DNA from: a virus
Taxonomy: Duplodnaviria > Heunggongvirae > Uroviricota > Caudoviricetes
Virus record (IMG/VR): IMGVR_UViG_2713897073_000006
Reading direction: 5' to 3' (one strand)
DNA length: 26,128 nt
A model generated the notes under the pieces. That model was not told where the DNA came from. It was given only the letters and a program-made list of their open reading frames with translations, and did no database searches. Positions 5,160-24,892 of this stretch are shown piece after piece. A program made the translations under genes and the position numbers. The stretch's first letter is position 1; every line of letters begins with the position of its first letter.

Positions 5160-5744
5160 TTATTGTTTGCTTTTTTCGTTCTGGTTGATGACAAATTCAA
5201 TGTAACTTTCGATCTTTGCCTTCTCTGTTTCAGGTAACAATGCGTAGCGCGAGCGGTCATAGTTGATAGTCGCGGGGTCGTGCGGGTGAATCAGTAATTC
5301 ATATCCGTGACGCCCAAATGCGGATGCAACATTCTCCAGGGTGGAAATGGAAACGCTGACCTCATTGTTTAACAGGCGGCTGATTGTTACCTGGGCGACG
5401 CCGGATGCGCGGTGAAGTTTTCCCTGCGTTGAAAGGTCGCGGCTTTCGCTCATCCAGCGTTCCAGGTTGTGAGCCGCCAGTTGACCAATGTCGCTTGGTC
5501 CGACAGGCTGAAAACCTTCCTGAGAAAGCGAGCGATCGATATCAAGCCAGTTACGGGGTTTATTGGCGGCAGCTTCAATTTTTCGCGCAACCTGGTCGCC
5601 GATAACCTTCTTGCCAAGAGCCCAGCGGTTTACCAGATTTGCCTGAGTTCCAAGTTTTTCAGCCATCCGCGTCTGAACACCATTGAATTCACGGTCGATC
5701 AAGTCGTTGAGATTTTGCCTGCGGACGTCCTGGATACTTTTCAT
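5160..5744 (-). CDS. Prophage repressor, two HTH-like segments and no S24 peptidase domain
   Basis: 194-aa ORF divergent from the Cro-like gene. HTH-like segments QTRMAEKLGTQANLVNRWALGKK and ASGVAQVTISRLLNNEVSVSISTLENVASAFG. No Ala-Gly / Ser-Lys autocleavage module is visible. Confidence 0.75.
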   Translation of the reverse strand: MKSIQDVRRQNLNDLIDREFNGVQTRMAEKLGTQANLVNRWALGKKVIGDQVARKIEAAANKPRNWLDIDRSLSQEGFQPVGPSDIGQLAAHNLERWMSESRDLSTQGKLHRASGVAQVTISRLLNNEVSVSISTLENVASAFGRHGYELLIHPHDPATINYDRSRYALLPETEKAKIESYIEFVINQNEKSKQ

Positions 5745-8145: not shown

Positions 8146-8192
8146 TAAAATGTTCTAATCTCTATTGATTTCATGTCTTATGTGGTTTTTAA

Positions 8193-8207
8193 TTACCTAA
8201 GGGGTAA
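8193..8207. promoter_or_regulatory. Palindromic operator-like site TTACCtaaggGGTAA (site g)
   Basis: Perfect motif ending 4 nt before the ATG at 8211. It is 62 bp from site f, the same spacing as the a/b pair, with a TTGATT -35-like hexamer between them. Confidence 0.6.
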
Positions 8208-12260: not shown

Positions 12261-12593
12261 ATGATCACCGACAAACTGTTGATGTTCTCCGAAGCACAGG
12301 CGGTAACTGATACCGCGGCTTCTACTGACGTAATCGATCTCGGTCCAATTGACGGAAACCGTCGCGATATCGGTGTGGGTTACCCGCTTGAGTTTTGGGT
12401 GCTGGTTAACGAAGCCGCCACGGCAAGTGGTGAGGCAACTGTAAACATCCAGTTGCAGACGAGTGAGAATAACAGCTCATGGTCCACTATTTATGATAGT
12501 GGCGCACTGGCAAAGGCTACCCTGACAGCAGGTACCCGCCGAAAGAGTTGCGTCGCTATGCGCATGACAACTGGCAACTGGTTGATGTGGTAA
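12261..12593 (+). CDS. Small virion protein (possible capsid decoration protein), or N-terminal part of a frameshifted structural gene
   Basis: 110-aa ORF with GGAGA ribosome-binding site immediately after the capsid gene. Its 3' end overlaps the next structural ORF, whose frame (-1) is open from 12500. Confidence 0.5.
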   Translation: MITDKLLMFSEAQAVTDTAASTDVIDLGPIDGNRRDIGVGYPLEFWVLVNEAATASGEATVNIQLQTSENNSSWSTIYDSGALAKATLTAGTRRKSCVAMRMTTGNWLMW

Positions 12594-21876: not shown

Positions 21877-22320
21877 TTATTCTTCTTCTTCATCATTAAA
21901 AAGCGGATTGTTGTTTCCATCTGATGAAAGGAAAGGTATGTGTTCTCTTGAAAATCCAACAATGACAATTTCATTATCATTTTTTGCATAATGAATGCAT
22001 TCATTAGAATGCATTCCGCCAGGGTTGAAATTTAAGTTAATGGTATAATTCTTAAATGTGTTTGGATACCATGTTGGCCCACAATGATAATGCCAATAAT
22101 TCTCTTGCTCATAATTGTCTGAGCCTGGAATTTTATCATGGTTATCATCAACCCACGAGGGCTTGTTTTTTCCAACAAGCGCCCTTCCATTGGCAACATC
22201 CTCTAAAAACCTTTGTATGATTTTTATTTCATCATCAGTAAGGAAAGGTCCGTCTACAGCGAAAGGGGTGTTGCTTTCCCCATGTAGAAAACTATTAGAT
22301 ATTCTAATGTTAAACTTCAA
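21877..22320 (-). CDS. Hypothetical accessory protein, AT-rich gene (147 aa, TTG start)
   Basis: TTG at 22320 preceded by AGGAG at 7-nt spacing. Coding sequence is visibly A+T-rich compared with the flanking virion genes. Product has an acidic NDEEEE tail and His/Cys/Trp-rich segments (ENYWHYHCGPTWYPN, GGMHSNECIHYAKND). No family recognised. Confidence 0.55.
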   Translation of the reverse strand: MKFNIRISNSFLHGESNTPFAVDGPFLTDDEIKIIQRFLEDVANGRALVGKNKPSWVDDNHDKIPGSDNYEQENYWHYHCGPTWYPNTFKNYTINLNFNPGGMHSNECIHYAKNDNEIVIVGFSREHIPFLSSDGNNNPLFNDEEEE

Positions 22321-22340: not shown

Positions 22341-22508
22341 CTATTTGGAGCGAAATGCCGCCTTGAAGTCGCTAAAAGATGTTCCTGTCTGGTAAACCAT
22401 ATCCTTGTCGCGCTCTTTGCTTGCGCGACCAAGCATAACTTTTCCAATGACATCCCAGCATTGCTTGGCTTGTTCATTGTGCTGAGTACGATTTTTCAAC
22501 GCTGTCAT
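22341..22508 (-). CDS. Hypothetical small protein (55 aa), upstream partner of the 147-aa gene
   Basis: ATG at 22508 with a strong AAGGAGG ribosome-binding site 8 nt upstream, directly downstream of operator site h. Hand-translated MTALKNRTQHNEQAKQCWDVIGKVMLGRASKERDKDMVYQTGTSFSDFKAAFRSK. Preferred over the plus-strand ORF 22335..22535. Confidence 0.45.
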   Translation of the reverse strand: MTALKNRTQHNEQAKQCWDVIGKVMLGRASKERDKDMVYQTGTSFSDFKAAFRSK

Positions 22509-22520
22509 ATCGCGCCTCCT

Positions 22521-22535
22521 TTACCTTTAAGGTAA
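22521..22535. promoter_or_regulatory. Palindromic operator-like site TTACCtttaaGGTAA (site h)
   Basis: Perfect motif just upstream of the ribosome-binding site of the 55-aa gene and just downstream of a TAATAT-like -10. Identical in sequence to site j. Confidence 0.6.
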
Positions 22536-22601: not shown

Positions 22602-23330
22602 TCAGAAGAACCCTGCCTTGTCGTTGATGTACTCCGCGTGGGTCTGGATATCACGCAGGCATTTGCTCACACCGACGATGTAGCAGAACATGGTGGTCAG
22701 TTCCGCCGCCGCGCCCGATACGTCATGCCCGTCTTCCTGTAACTGGTTCAGCAAATTCATCAGCAGTGAGTTCTCCGTCAGGCCGAGAACACCAGACGGC
22801 GAATGAATCAGGCTACGGTAGCCGGGCTTCAGTGGGGCGCTGTAGGTTTTGTTCTCTATCTTCATTGCCTGCATCACTGCTGATGCTGTGGCGTTGGCTA
22901 CCTGGTCGGCAACCATCTTTATGCGTTCTTCTTGCGGGAGCGAGTTTTTAATGTAACTTCCGGTGCGGCGGATCTGAGGAAGAACCTCACCTGTAACCCA
23001 TTTACGAAAGCGGTATGGGATAGTGCCTGGTGTCACCGCATCGCGGCAGCGGAGGATCAGTGTGTAGAGGCCTGACTCGTTGATAATATTGGTTTCGCCT
23101 TGACGGCCTAAGTTAAATTTAGCCCTTTCATCATCATCAAGAGATTTTATTGACATAGTGGGGTTTGTCAGTTGAAGAGCTTTAATAACGTCTTTGGCAA
23201 CAAACCAAGGATTAATCGCAAATCCAACTCTCCTCAGAGTTATAACGCTCAAACGCTTTACACATACTTTGTGTTGGTGCTGGAGGGCGTTCAAGGGCAG
23301 CCATGACTTGCTCCCAAACATCCTCTTCAA
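22602..23330 (-). CDS. Bro-N domain antirepressor-like protein (N-terminus uncertain)
   Basis: Contains the Bro-N signature ...FAINPWFVAKDVIKAL...INESGLYTLILRCRDAV...FRKWVTGEVLPQIRRTGSY. The C-terminal roughly 90 aa are paralogous to the small protein at 24440..24697. The 5' 119 nt overlap the upstream RHH gene in another frame; an alternative ATG lies at 23156. Confidence 0.65.
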   Translation of the reverse strand: MKRMFGSKSWLPLNALQHQHKVCVKRLSVITLRRVGFAINPWFVAKDVIKALQLTNPTMSIKSLDDDERAKFNLGRQGETNIINESGLYTLILRCRDAVTPGTIPYRFRKWVTGEVLPQIRRTGSYIKNSLPQEERIKMVADQVANATASAVMQAMKIENKTYSAPLKPGYRSLIHSPSGVLGLTENSLLMNLLNQLQEDGHDVSGAAAELTTMFCYIVGVSKCLRDIQTHAEYINDKAGFF

Positions 23331-23496
23331 CGATCAAGCGGCGATGTTCATTAATAACTGTTTCAGCTCTAAAAGTCGCAGACTCCATTACAAATTGAGA
23401 TACGGACACTTTAGAAATAACAGCAGCTTCTTCGATACGGCGCTTCGCAGCTTCGGGCAGACGAAACTCGAACCGCTCCTTTCTTACTGCGTTCAT
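23212..23496 (-). CDS. DUF1778 / TacA-like ribbon-helix-helix protein (antitoxin-type fold)
   Basis: ATG at 23496 with AGGAG 5 nt upstream. The 94-aa product MNAVRKERFEFRLPEAAKRRIEEAAVISKVSVSQFVMESATFRAETVINEHRRLIVEEDVWEQVMAALERPPAPT matches the DUF1778 antitoxin pattern. No GNAT toxin gene follows. Confidence 0.75.
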   Translation of the reverse strand: MNAVRKERFEFRLPEAAKRRIEEAAVISKVSVSQFVMESATFRAETVINEHRRLIVEEDVWEQVMAALERPPAPTQSMCKAFERYNSEESWICD

Positions 23497-23560
23497 AACA
23501 ACTCCTGAGCTAATGCTCACAGTGGTTTATACCACATAACGATATGCACGGTACGGGAAT

Positions 23561-23575
23561 TTACCGTACAGGTAA
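23561..23575. promoter_or_regulatory. Palindromic operator-like site TTACCgtacaGGTAA (site i)
   Basis: Perfect motif 65 nt upstream of the RHH gene start, in the promoter region of the RHH / Bro-N operon. Confidence 0.6.
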
Positions 23576-23653
23576 TGATAAGCGCGAAGAAACATTAAAA
23601 TCAACCTTATTTGGTTGATTGCGTTTAACGCTTGATCACCTGAAAGCAAGATA

Positions 23654-23688: not shown

Positions 23689-24417
23689 ATGGAAGTTTTC
23701 TGGATAGTTGTTGGTGTGGTTGCGGTGATTATTTACGTTATCAACCAGAACAAGACTAAGATCTCTGATCGTACGGTCGTTAATCATAACAAAACGATAA
23801 AGACCGAAGATGGGGAGATAACGATTAATCGTACACAGGTGATAGAACACACCTCTACTCAGTTTCAAAAAACTGGAGGTAATGCGCCTAATATTTCCGC
23901 ACCTCCTGCTTATGATAGTGCGGTAATCCAGACATATTATAAACAGCAGGAGTTAGCAAAAGAGAGGCAACTGATTCAGCCAAAGCCGTTTACAACTGAG
24001 ATTCCACCTGGAGTGTCAACGCGTCCGGCATATCATGGAAGATTCCCTGGTGATGACATATCGTCTCAGTCATCTAAAAAAGCACCTCAGGCAATATCAG
24101 AGCCAGCAAGAATACCTTCTGTATCGCCGCAAAAAGAAGAATCAGCTAACAGAGTTTCAAGTGGTAGCAAGCAGTGCTTGCGATGCAGAATAAACCTTCC
24201 ATATGAAAAATTCAGGAAATCGTCAAAAAATCCAGATGGATTGACTAAATGGTGTGCAAGGTGTCTCGATGGCCCAAAGAATACACGCCATATGAAGTGG
24301 TGCCCAATTTGTAATGTCCGCAGAAAACGAACCAGCTTTTACCCTAATAATCAAAATGCGGACGGCTTAATGGCATGGTGCAAAACGTGCTGGGATGAGC
24401 ACAAAGCGAAACGATAG
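23689..24417 (+). CDS. Membrane-anchored protein with C-terminal tandem C4 zinc ribbons (function unknown)
   Basis: GAGG ribosome-binding site. N-terminal hydrophobic helix MEVFWIVVGVVAVIIYVI, long polar Ser/Pro/Gln-rich linker, then two repeats of C-x2-C ... (N)xDGL-x2-WC-x2-C (CLRC...PDGLTKWCARC and CPIC...ADGLMAWCKTC). Confidence 0.7.
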   Translation: MEVFWIVVGVVAVIIYVINQNKTKISDRTVVNHNKTIKTEDGEITINRTQVIEHTSTQFQKTGGNAPNISAPPAYDSAVIQTYYKQQELAKERQLIQPKPFTTEIPPGVSTRPAYHGRFPGDDISSQSSKKAPQAISEPARIPSVSPQKEESANRVSSGSKQCLRCRINLPYEKFRKSSKNPDGLTKWCARCLDGPKNTRHMKWCPICNVRRKRTSFYPNNQNADGLMAWCKTCWDEHKAKR

Positions 24418-24441
24418 GCCGCTCTTGCGGCCTTTAAATTT
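24417..24441. terminator. Bidirectional terminator-like hairpin between convergent genes
   Basis: Stem GGCCGC / GCGGCC (24417-24422 / 24427-24432), loop TCTT, followed by TTTAAATTT on the plus strand. Sits between the stop of the zinc-ribbon gene (24417) and the stop of the minus-strand gene (24440). Confidence 0.55.
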
Positions 24442-24697
24442 ACCGGGTTTGTTTTCGTAATTGTTCGGCACAATAGTCGAGATGTGTTTGCAGATCCCGC
24501 ATAGACATCTGTGAGCTGGTGACGTAGTTAATCAGTGCAGTCAGTTCGGCAAGTGGGCCATCGACATTAAATCCATCCTTATCGAGATCCCGGAGTAATT
24601 TCATCAAGTGCGATCCCTCCACCAGTGACCTGACGCCTCCCGGCGTGTGAATCCTTTCGGTAAATCCGTCTTCCAGTGGATAGTGATACCGCTGCAT
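24440..24697 (-). CDS. Small protein paralogous to the Bro-N protein C-terminal domain; candidate SOS-inducible antirepressor
   Basis: ATG at 24697 with GGAG ribosome-binding site (the track's TTG start at 24715 was rejected). The 85-aa product (...SHLMKLLRDLDKDGFNVDGPLAELTALINYVTSSQMSMRDLQTHLDYCAEQL) aligns by eye with the C-terminus of the 22602..23330 protein (...SLLMNLLNQLQEDGHDVSGAAAELTTMFCYIVGVSKCLRDIQTHAEYINDK). A LexA box lies about 22 nt upstream. Confidence 0.6.
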   Translation of the reverse strand: MQRYHYPLEDGFTERIHTPGGVRSLVEGSHLMKLLRDLDKDGFNVDGPLAELTALINYVTSSQMSMRDLQTHLDYCAEQLRKQTR

Positions 24698-24716: not shown

Positions 24717-24736
24717 AACTGTATATTTATACAGTA
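24717..24736. promoter_or_regulatory. LexA (SOS) box aaCTGTatatttatACAGta
   Basis: CTGT-N8-ACAG with an AT-rich spacer, near-identical to the E. coli LexA consensus taCTGTatatatatACAGta. Located in the promoter region of the minus-strand gene 24440..24697. Confidence 0.65.
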
Positions 24737-24773
24737 TCAAATAATTTGTTTGCTATCCAGCACGTTTTGCAAA

Positions 24774-24788
24774 TTACCCGAAAGGTAA
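24774..24788. promoter_or_regulatory. Palindromic operator-like site TTACCcgaaaGGTAA (site k)
   Basis: Perfect motif between the LexA-box gene and the tailspike gene, about 40 bp from the LexA box. Confidence 0.6.
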
Positions 24789-24892
24789 TATCTATTCATA
24801 TTCACAGCCTTTCTATCCATATGTGGTTTTTCAGGTAATAGAATAACCAGATATGCGGCGCAACGGGTGCTGCGACTATCTGGAGATTTAAC

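Follow-up and report, generated by a model that had tools for sequence, protein, structure and literature searches.

Why should a DUF1778/TacA-type RHH gene lie directly upstream of a Bro-N antirepressor-like gene in a prophage, and do the two work together? The original prediction for this DNA (26,128 nt in all, hereafter the window) offered two possibilities, an Arc/Mnt-Ant-like evolved module or a novel RHH plus Bro-N pair with toxin-antitoxin (TA)-like behavior. Our analysis points elsewhere. With a probability of roughly 88%, we read the locus as a recent plasmid-prophage chimera, a recombination scar that comprises an orphan antitoxin gene and a probably dead Bro-N/Ant-like gene. The two genes concerned are:

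23212..23496, minus strand: tacA, 94 aa, ATG 23496, stop 23214-23212; an intact gene of the DUF1778/TacA-AtaR-KacA RHH antitoxin family, its toxin gene absent.
22602..23252, minus strand: gene for a Bro-N protein with an Ant-like C-terminal domain, 5'-truncated; RefSeq call, TTG 23252, 216 aa.

Pfam profile searches confirmed both predicted genes at these places on the minus strand, and they are genuine genes rather than chance ORFs. The maximal tacA ORF (23212..23520, 102 aa from a GTG) matches PF08681 (TacA1) with E = 5.1e-20 and 71.7 bits (cutoff 21), over profile positions 1-79 of 80. Solved relatives include AtaR (6AJM, E = 5e-20) and KacA (5ZGN, E = 1.2e-17). The start that we prefer, ATG 23496, has GGAG upstream, gives a protein of 94 aa and is the one annotated in RefSeq; the SD duplex of tacA is -6.9 kcal/mol. 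In KacA, R8 and R12 contact DNA (PMC6698736), and the equivalent residues of TacA, also R8 and R12, are invariant in the family alignment. The Pfam search returned no Arc or Mnt match for the RHH protein, only a weak NikA-like hit besides TacA1. Neutralization of a GNAT toxin is a property of the family that this copy may share. For the Bro-N gene, the maximal ORF (22602..23330, minus strand, 242 aa from a TTG) carries a Bro-N domain (PF02498, E = 6.7e-18), and the C-terminal domain of the protein matches phrog_450 (E = 3.8e-36). A 119-nt overlap of the two ORFs had been predicted. It holds for the maximal ORF (23212-23330), whose frame is open up to TTG 23330, but this codon has no SD and the RefSeq start reduces the overlap to 41 nt.

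The absence of a GNAT toxin gene, also predicted, is borne out. A tblastn search of the whole 26-kb window with the cognate TacT gave nothing significant (best E = 0.024), which leads us to reject a hidden or degraded toxin gene, and cognate tacT DNA is absent from the complete E. coli genomes (5426 searched). Only the very beginning of the toxin gene is present:

23168..23221, minus strand: tacT remnant with its own TTG start at 23221, the SD GAGGAG and four native codons kept.

The SD duplex at this start amounts to -9.2 kcal/mol. The frame of the remnant enters Bro-N DNA out of frame, forming a 17-codon ORF (MRLILGLLPKTLLKLFN, then stop); the N-terminus of the plasmid TacT reads LRLIPGF. 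Ribosomes at the retained tacT start would thus be expected to make a 17-residue out-of-frame peptide.

The source of the tacA segment can be identified. It is delimited by two short patches, which we read from a three-way alignment of the window, the 118UI prophage and a plasmid:

23209..23576, unstranded: plasmid-identical segment with tacA, the promoter-proximal DNA before it and the first tacT codons.
23570..23576, unstranded: left crossover patch ATTACCT, common to prophage and plasmid, within an 18-mer at which the parents are 17/18 identical.
23209..23213, unstranded: right crossover patch AATCC, common to the plasmid tacT start and Bro-N codons 25-27, within a 12-mer that is 11/12 identical.

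The plasmid is pRHB09-C18_5 (CP057940.1), a 3.5-kb ColE1/Rop-type E. coli plasmid with a tacA-tacT locus, and positions 23209-23576 align to it with 0 mismatches in 368 nt (100% identity), which upholds the suggestion that the RHH gene is TA-derived. All 94/94 residues of TacA are the same in the two proteins. On the plasmid, the identical tacA is followed, with a 10-nt overlap, by the gene for a GNAT toxin of 176 aa. Eight more small plasmids, from Klebsiella, Raoultella and Citrobacter, match the segment at 98.9-99.7%. Positions 23214-23569 are plasmid-derived without ambiguity, and the prophage DNA that the segment displaced is 339 nt long, consisting of the transcribed leader next to the promoter and Bro-N codons 1-25.

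The ancestral allele is found in prophage 118UI, which is 98.6-98.7% identical on either side of the segment and whose Bro-N gene is intact, coding for 228 aa; tacA is missing from 118UI as well as from TL-2011b and phiV10. DNA homology of the Bro-N gene to the 118UI prophage starts at 23213, and only from there downward is the Bro-N sequence native, beginning at native codon 26. Compared with intact alleles, the protein has other residues in place of native 1-25. A 356-368-nt piece of a small-plasmid tacA-tacT operon took the place of 339 nt in a phiV10/epsilon15-like prophage through a double crossover at ATTACCT, inside the prophage operator, and at AATCC. The piece brought in the palindromic TacA-type operator, the RBS of tacA, complete tacA, and the tacT SD with the four codons that follow it, while the rest of the toxin gene was left behind.

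The junction between tacA and the Bro-N gene, marked by the 29-mer GATTTGCGATTAATCCTTGGTTTGTTGCC, occurs in 14 of 5426 complete E. coli genomes, in copies at least 99.7% identical. The carriers, among them strains M9682-C1 and FORC_031, have complete chromosomes that were assembled independently in different projects; the two junctions are clean and share one orientation. Identity of 100% to a plasmid is what an assembly or sequencing artefact joining plasmid and chromosome reads could also produce, but recurrence of one junction in 14 such chromosomes, with such clean ends, makes this vanishingly unlikely. The Bro-N region itself is present in 469 E. coli genomes, about 455 of which are without tacA. 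Because the splice is so recent, the intactness of tacA is uninformative on selection either way.

If the two genes formed a functional pair, their association might recur elsewhere. Among viral loci in IMG/VR that encode TacA relatives, a GNAT gene lies downstream in 51/51 and a Bro-N gene in 0/51; among viral Bro-N loci, the native N-terminus is found in 79/79 and TacA upstream in 0/79. Metagenomic and plasmid TacA relatives that we examined always have a GNAT gene downstream. Relatives at 85-89% and at 59% amino acid identity are each followed by a 176-178-aa ORF with the same 10-nt overlap, and those behind the 85-89% relatives match GNAT Pfam families. With no co-occurrence in these 51 and 79 loci, we reject a conserved TacA plus Bro-N pairing, and our literature search found no paper naming DUF1778 together with Bro-N. 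A novel TA-like pair, in which the Bro-N protein would be the toxin and the DUF1778 protein the antitoxin, has in its favor the gene order and overlapping ORFs, nothing else. Besides the lack of recurrence, the ~455 E. coli genomes that hold the Bro-N gene without tacA indicate that it is not toxic enough to require TacA, the two genes were joined by a splice at microhomology, and the C-terminus of TacA-family proteins is specialized for binding the GNAT toxin (PMC6698736). We regard this second possibility of the original prediction as highly improbable and already effectively refuted.

Regulation of the spliced locus involves DNA from both parents:

23575..23604, minus strand: prophage promoter-like sequence, -35 TTGATT at 23604-23599, 18-nt spacer, -10 TATCAT at 23580-23575.
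23561..23575, unstranded: candidate Rep-type operator TTACC-N5-GGTAA, abutting the -10 and overlapping the TacA palindrome.
23551..23569, unstranded: predicted TacA-type operator palindrome GTACGG-N7-CCGTAC, which arrived with the plasmid segment.

The promoter-like stretch is native to the prophage (98.6% identical to 118UI), was kept upstream of the splice and, judging from the sequence, would now drive tacA. At 8166-8207 the window has a site of the same geometry, TTGATT-N18-TAnnAT and then TACC-N5-GGTAA. The window contains 11 TTACC-N5-GGTAA sites, compared to a mean of 0.41 in shuffled sequences, and 0/100 shuffles reach 11. Other copies flank the Rep gene at PL- and PR-like positions; on the basis of position alone, the sites presumably belong to Rep. 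The expected operator in the tacA promoter is indeed seen, as the copy abutting the -10. By comparison, GTACGG-N7-CCGTAC has a single exact copy in the window, and it is found upstream of tacA in 64/66 other fetched tacA-GNAT loci and in 0/82 loci without tacA. KacA and AtaR bind a palindrome across the transcription start, and for KacA alone operator binding is weak, versus strong binding by the A4T2 hexamer (PMC6698736). Transcription of the orphan tacA probably starts at the Bro promoter native to the prophage. A Rep-type operator remains there at +1, and hence this promoter is probably closed in the lysogen. At the overlapping palindrome, TacA would be expected to add no more than weak autorepression, since it has no GNAT corepressor.

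The prophage appears to have an antirepression switch of its own, encoded elsewhere:

5160..5744, minus strand: prophage repressor Rep, homologue of the Salmonella phage SPC32H Rep (5D50_A, E = 3.5e-42).
24440..24697, minus strand: small Ant, 85 aa, 84% identical to SPC32H Ant (5D50_E).

No peptidase domain was found in the Rep homologue, for which Pfam gives HTH_3 only. Upstream of small ant lie a perfect LexA box (CTGTATATTTATACAG, 24717-24736, 0 mismatches; intergenic match 24719-24734), a second match with one mismatch (24792-24807) and a Rep-type operator (24774-24788). LexA control of the tacA/Bro-N promoter was considered and rejected, as no intergenic LexA-box match occurs there; both sit upstream of small ant. 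The small Ant is likely to be the true antirepressor of this prophage, and the predicted SOS-responsive antirepression switch is Rep with the LexA-controlled small Ant, separate from the Bro-N gene. In its Rep homologue and its 85-aa Ant with a LexA box, the window resembles the SPC32H Rep-Ant system of epsilon15-like phages (5D50). The Bro-N protein ends in a domain of this Ant family, and the 118UI allele matches 5D50_E in that domain (E = 1.9e-13). However, the Bro-N/Ant-like gene is a larger second paralogue with an N-terminal Bro-N domain, truncated here, and has a Rep-type operator rather than a LexA box. Other counterparts are the Bro-N 'anti-immunity' proteins phiV10 gp23 and TL-2011b gp46, whose genes occupy the same position, with tail genes on one side and the tailspike on the other. 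Nucleotide identity is 93-99% from codon 26 (118UI) or from about codon 70 (TL-2011b, phiV10); the difference is that here the tacA cassette replaces the native leader and codons 1-25.

How much function does the truncated gene retain? We found no Shine-Dalgarno sequence at any of the in-frame Bro-N starts examined (TTG 23330, ATG 23321, TTG 23252); their SD duplexes are +0.4, +0.2 and -0.4 kcal/mol, compared to -4.3 for the native Bro-N start. The Bro-N/Ant-like gene has lost its native start codon and RBS, and its frame would be open into tacA by chance. The Bro-N Pfam score is 65.5 bits for the truncated protein versus 72.3 for the intact allele, even though the first strand is now encoded by out-of-frame tacA DNA. 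The 13 chimeric residues ahead of the junction, SVITLRRVGFAI, resemble the native strand SEATIRAIVIDG. We treat the likeness of TLRRVGFAI to TIRAIVIDG as coincidence. Read in another frame, the 3' end of tacA encodes the chimeric strand, which the plasmid has in identical form. The drop in score is modest, such that a product from the chimeric starts might fold. Bro-N protein could still arise by leaderless, non-SD or coupled initiation (at TTG 23252, or at ATG 23321 for a product of 239 aa), and reinitiation at ATG 23156, 12 nt past the stop of the remnant ORF, could yield a 184-aa protein retaining the Ant-like C-terminal domain. Most likely, as far as can be told from sequence, the Bro-N/Ant-like gene is a young pseudogene, untranslated or poorly translated. 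That the ORF might be a pseudogene was raised in the original prediction as an outcome that would speak against it, and this is largely what we see, a 5'-truncated ORF for which no usable translation start was found.

These features also bear on whether an immI-like circuit is beginning to form, with TacA acting in Arc-like fashion on the promoter of the Bro-N/Ant-like gene and so regulating its expression. As in P22 immI (mnt / arc-ant), a small RHH gene lies directly upstream of an antirepressor-like gene, with an RHH operator at the shared promoter: the palindrome at 23551-23569 overlaps the +1 region of the sole promoter-like site upstream of both genes. Homology of the Bro-N C-terminal domain to a proven antirepressor (5D50_E) and its 41% identity to small Ant fit such a circuit, and the relative TL-2011b has a natural Arc-like plus Ant pair. 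But the RHH protein here is of the TacA family, not Arc/Mnt, and TacA-family proteins without the GNAT corepressor repress weakly. The splice is recent, codons 1-25 of the downstream gene are gone together with its start and RBS, the arrangement is conserved in no relative, and the real antirepression switch of the family is Rep with the LexA-controlled small Ant. We consider a developing circuit quite unlikely. As for the evolved Arc/Mnt-Ant-like module originally envisaged, the plasmid splice, the truncation of the Bro-N gene and the restriction of the junction to 14 near-identical genomes argue against it. What survives is that, by an accident of the splice, the predicted TacA operator overlaps a promoter that would read into the Bro-N remnant.

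The plasmid-prophage chimera that we favor leaves an intact antitoxin gene, and one may ask whether it was kept for a purpose. Orphan TacA could have been captured adaptively to neutralize TacT-type GNAT toxins of small plasmids or of phage defence, acting as an anti-addiction or counter-defence antitoxin made from the prophage promoter. The gene is complete with RBS, promoter and operator, and shows 100% identity to a copy that has a toxin partner. Plasmids of the donor type are in circulation among E. coli, Klebsiella, Raoultella and Citrobacter, and phages are known to counter TA defence with orphan antitoxins (PMC11825919). On the other hand, the event is too recent (99.7-100% identity) for intactness to imply selection, only 14/5426 genomes carry the junction, and none of the complete E. 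coli genomes contains cognate tacT, so that TacA would probably have no cognate toxin to neutralize in the carrier genomes. The Rep-type operator in the promoter implies that expression in the lysogen is probably low. Moreover, the prophage is defective, a conclusion drawn from the lack of any annotated terminase gene and the annotation of several pseudogenes. Adaptive capture thus seems doubtful. It is likewise unlikely that TacA has a dual function, as a protective orphan antitoxin and as a second regulator of the Ant-family gene remnant.

As an ordinary GNAT-RHH type II TA antitoxin (TacA/AtaR/KacA; PF08681; 6AJM, 6GTO, 5ZGN), the protein has the full-length Pfam match, R8/R12, the upstream palindrome, and complete identity to a plasmid copy partnered with a GNAT toxin. 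It differs in its setting, which has no GNAT gene, just the SD and four codons of tacT, and a prophage promoter with the operator of a prophage repressor. Orphan antitoxins on chromosomes and prophages have been surveyed in Klebsiella (PMC7192599) and E. coli (PMC10790755). The present gene is likewise a toxin-less antitoxin gene in a mobile element, but here the donor, both crossovers and the ancestral recipient allele are identifiable to the base.

What seemed to be a new RHH/antirepressor or TA-like module is, on our reading, better seen as a datable recombination scar. In annotation, the RefSeq 'BRO-N domain-containing protein' (TTG start, 41-nt overlap) is here better treated as a probable pseudogene. 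The locus would provide a natural example of prophage accessory-gene inactivation, and of the birth of an orphan antitoxin, the plasmid TA operon having been cut precisely where antitoxin meets toxin. Should the orphan TacA prove active, a GNAT-RHH case would join the prophage-borne anti-addiction or counter-defence antitoxins. And if it did serve both functions, this would be an RHH-antirepressor (immI-like) circuit caught assembling from TA parts via microhomology recombination.

As originally predicted, the locus pairs a DUF1778 gene that has no GNAT toxin partner with a Bro-N gene directly downstream. Its two members are as follows.

23212..23496 (-): tacA, encoding 94 aa from ATG 23496 within the ORF 23212..23520, with GGAG upstream of the start; Pfam TacA1/DUF1778, E=5.1e-20
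22602..23330 (-): Bro-N ORF; Bro-N profile match, E=6.7e-18

No GNAT toxin gene is encoded across the entire window. The predicted 119-nt overlap holds for the maximal ORFs; RefSeq/PGAP places the Bro-N start at TTG 23252 for the same DNA in 14 complete E. coli genomes, giving an overlap of 41 nt. Calling the downstream gene antirepressor-like is fair for the intact protein, because its C-terminal ~80 residues belong to the same Ant family as the small Ant of this prophage (41% identity). This domain matches phrog_450, and the intact allele of a related prophage in E. coli 118UI matches crystallised Ant of phage SPC32H (5D50_E) at E=1.9e-13. The 3' end of the gene (22602-22835) shares 95% nucleotide identity with gp42 'Ant' of the related phage TL-2011b (L001 2015-2271). 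The domain is a shuffled module, found in the Bro-N protein, in TL-2011b gp42 and as a free-standing 85-aa Ant.

The nearest relatives of TacA (85-89% and 59% amino acid identity) are all followed by an ORF of 176-178 aa with a 10-nt overlap, and the ORFs after the 85-89% relatives match GNAT Pfam families. A plasmid search found that 368 nt of the window (23209-23576) align with 0 mismatches to pRHB09-C18_5, a 3469-bp Rop-type E. coli plasmid (CP057940.1), which encodes an identical 94-aa TacA and an overlapping 176-aa GNAT gene (tacT). Eight further small plasmids, from Klebsiella, Raoultella and Citrobacter, match the segment at 98.9-99.7%. The 118UI prophage matches the window at 98.6-98.7% identity as far down as 23558, and the match resumes at 23213 and continues downward; in this prophage tacA is absent and the 228-aa Bro-N gene is intact, with MTANVTPSVFHFESEATIRAIVIDG/NPWF at its start. 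In a three-way alignment of window, 118UI prophage and plasmid, 339 prophage nt are replaced by 345 plasmid nt, with a short crossover patch at each end.

23576-23570: left patch, ATTACCT, inside an 18-mer 17/18 identical in both parents, which is a Rep-type operator in the prophage and overlaps the TacA palindrome in the plasmid
23213-23209: right patch, AATCC, in a 12-mer (11/12 identical) shared by the tacT start and Bro-N codons 25-28

RecT and a PD-(D/E)XK nuclease are among the proteins encoded by the prophage; we speculate that they may have mediated this short-homology exchange.

The tacA cassette is present in 14 of 5426 complete E. coli genomes, every time at the same junction and with at least 99.7% identity, and the Bro-N region in 469. 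In IMG/VR, each of the 51 TacA-relative loci places a GNAT gene immediately after the TacA relative, and Bro-N is absent from all of them; each of the 79 Bro-N-relative loci keeps the native N-terminus, with no TacA present. tacA is also absent from phages TL-2011b and phiV10. Given the single junction, the lack of co-occurrence at either set of loci and these two phages, the pairing is one recent event, and the idea of a novel RHH/Bro-N module falls away. Nor is the proposed Arc/Mnt-Ant-like arrangement supported. P22 arc-ant is similar in architecture alone: here the RHH protein falls outside the Arc/Mnt family, the gene after it is truncated, and the gene order is not conserved. A natural Arc-like repressor and Ant pair does occur elsewhere in this phage family, as TL-2011b gp41-gp42.

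The exchange cost the Bro-N gene its native leader, RBS, start codon and 25 codons, and its frame is open upstream only because the 3' end of tacA happens to lack a stop in that frame. SD pairing is essentially nil at the in-frame starts (TTG 23330, +0.4; ATG 23321, +0.2; TTG 23252, -0.4 kcal/mol), compared to -4.3 for the native Bro-N start and -6.9 for tacA. Nearby, strong SD pairing is offered only by the GAGGAG of tacT (-9.2), which serves the retained tacT start, TTG 23221.

23221..23168 (-): tacT remnant ORF of 17 codons, MRLILGLLPKTLLKLFN then stop, running out of frame through Bro-N DNA

With start, RBS and 25 codons gone and essentially no SD pairing at the remaining starts, the Bro-N ORF is a probable young pseudogene, judging from its sequence. 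Two points qualify this reading. Chimeric residues before the junction resemble the lost beta-strand by chance, and the Pfam Bro-N score drops only from 72.3 to 65.5 bits. Reinitiation at ATG 23156, 12 nt past the stop of the remnant ORF, could also yield a product that keeps the Ant-like domain.

tacA itself is intact, retains its own RBS and operator, and has R8 and R12 conserved. In KacA these two residues touch the operator DNA, a site straddling the transcription start, to which the antitoxin binds weakly by itself and strongly as part of the KacA4KacT2 hexamer (PMC6698736). The TacA palindrome, GTACGG-N7-CCGTAC, occurs once in the window (23551-23569). It lies upstream of the tacA/ataR/kacA-like gene at 64 of 66 other tacA-GNAT loci (plasmids, phage-plasmids and metagenomes; L006-L073), is kept exactly even where the TacA relatives are only 40-45% identical, and is found at none of the 82 fetched loci without tacA. 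For a TA family, such invariance in an operator is unusual. By analogy with KacA, autorepression of tacA would be at most weak. Judged by its sequence, its key residues and its operator, this TacA genuinely belongs to the TacA/AtaR/KacA family, but the adjacent GNAT toxin that defines these TA systems is missing, making tacA an orphan antitoxin, a well-documented category (PMC7192599, PMC10790755, PMC11825919). There is also no cognate toxin for it to neutralise, since tacT-like DNA is absent from all 5426 complete E. coli genomes. A functional role for TacA in anti-addiction or counter-defence, or an incipient immI-like circuit, seems to us improbable. The locus is thus genuine but nothing out of the ordinary: recombination left a scar here that turned tacA into an orphan antitoxin and probably inactivated the Bro-N/Ant-like gene.

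The window is a phiV10/epsilon15-like prophage integrated beside guaA in E. coli, 100% identical to several ETEC-type genomes. It looks defective, and, as no terminase gene is annotated in it and several structural genes are pseudogenes, it is probably non-inducible. The FDAARGOS_1077 copy, otherwise identical, has ~1.9 kb within the structural genes that is missing from the window at 12533-12534. All parts of an SPC32H-type antirepression system are present in the prophage.

5160..5744 (-): repressor, homologue of Salmonella phage SPC32H Rep (PDB 5D50_A, E=3.5e-42), in which no peptidase domain was found
24440..24697 (-): small Ant, 85 aa, 84% identical to crystallised SPC32H Ant (5D50_E)
24717-24736: perfect LexA box, TACTGTATATTTATACAGTA, preceding the small ant gene

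According to PMC9638917, SPC32H Rep sits as a tetramer on palindromic sites, and tetrameric Ant takes it apart. A perfect 15-nt inverted repeat (TGCAAAACGTGCTGG / CCAGCACGTTTTGCA; 24379-24393 and 24757-24771) brackets small ant and its LexA box, with a chance expectation of roughly 0.01 in this 4-kb region. Its left arm falls within the 3' end of a 242-aa ORF; its right arm overlaps the -35-like TTGCAA of the ant promoter and adjoins a Rep-type operator. The product of this 242-aa ORF (23689-24417(+), phrog_6762) is hydrophobic at its N-terminus; CxxC motifs recur in its C-terminal half, which matches two kinds of PHROG family, endonuclease VII-like and Lar-like, and gives a weak hit to Pfam Stc1. 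The ORF starts 20 nt downstream of a perfect ATTACCTTTAAGGTAAT operator. Behind the Rep-type operator at 22521 is a two-gene operon (22341-22508(-), 55 aa, phrog_8607; 21877-22320(-), 147 aa, phrog_5954; neither family has an assigned function). It fills the slot of the YafO-family toxin and preceding small gene of TL-2011b, and may be another small, possibly TA-like, two-gene cassette.

The window holds 11 copies of the motif TTACC-N5-GGTAA, where 0.41 would be expected.

5026, 5088: PL-like position, with the Rep stop on one side and the leftward early genes on the other
5800, 5848: Rep/cro-like intergenic region, one copy between -35 and -10
6185: between the cro-like gene and the next downstream gene
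8131, 8193: another promoter, after the replication genes
22521, 23561, 23654, 24774: accessory region, one at every promoter there
23604..23575: promoter-like TTGATT-18-TATCAT, its -10 abutting the operator at 23561-23575

The operator predicted in the tacA promoter is the copy at 23561-23575. A recurring geometry is seen, TTGATT-N18-TAnnAT followed directly by TACC-N5-GGTAA. From their placement, these sites are probably Rep operators; tacA would be transcribed from the prophage Bro promoter, and in the lysogen Rep probably keeps its expression low. If the sites are indeed Rep operators, the moron-like genes of this prophage would be directly repressed by Rep.
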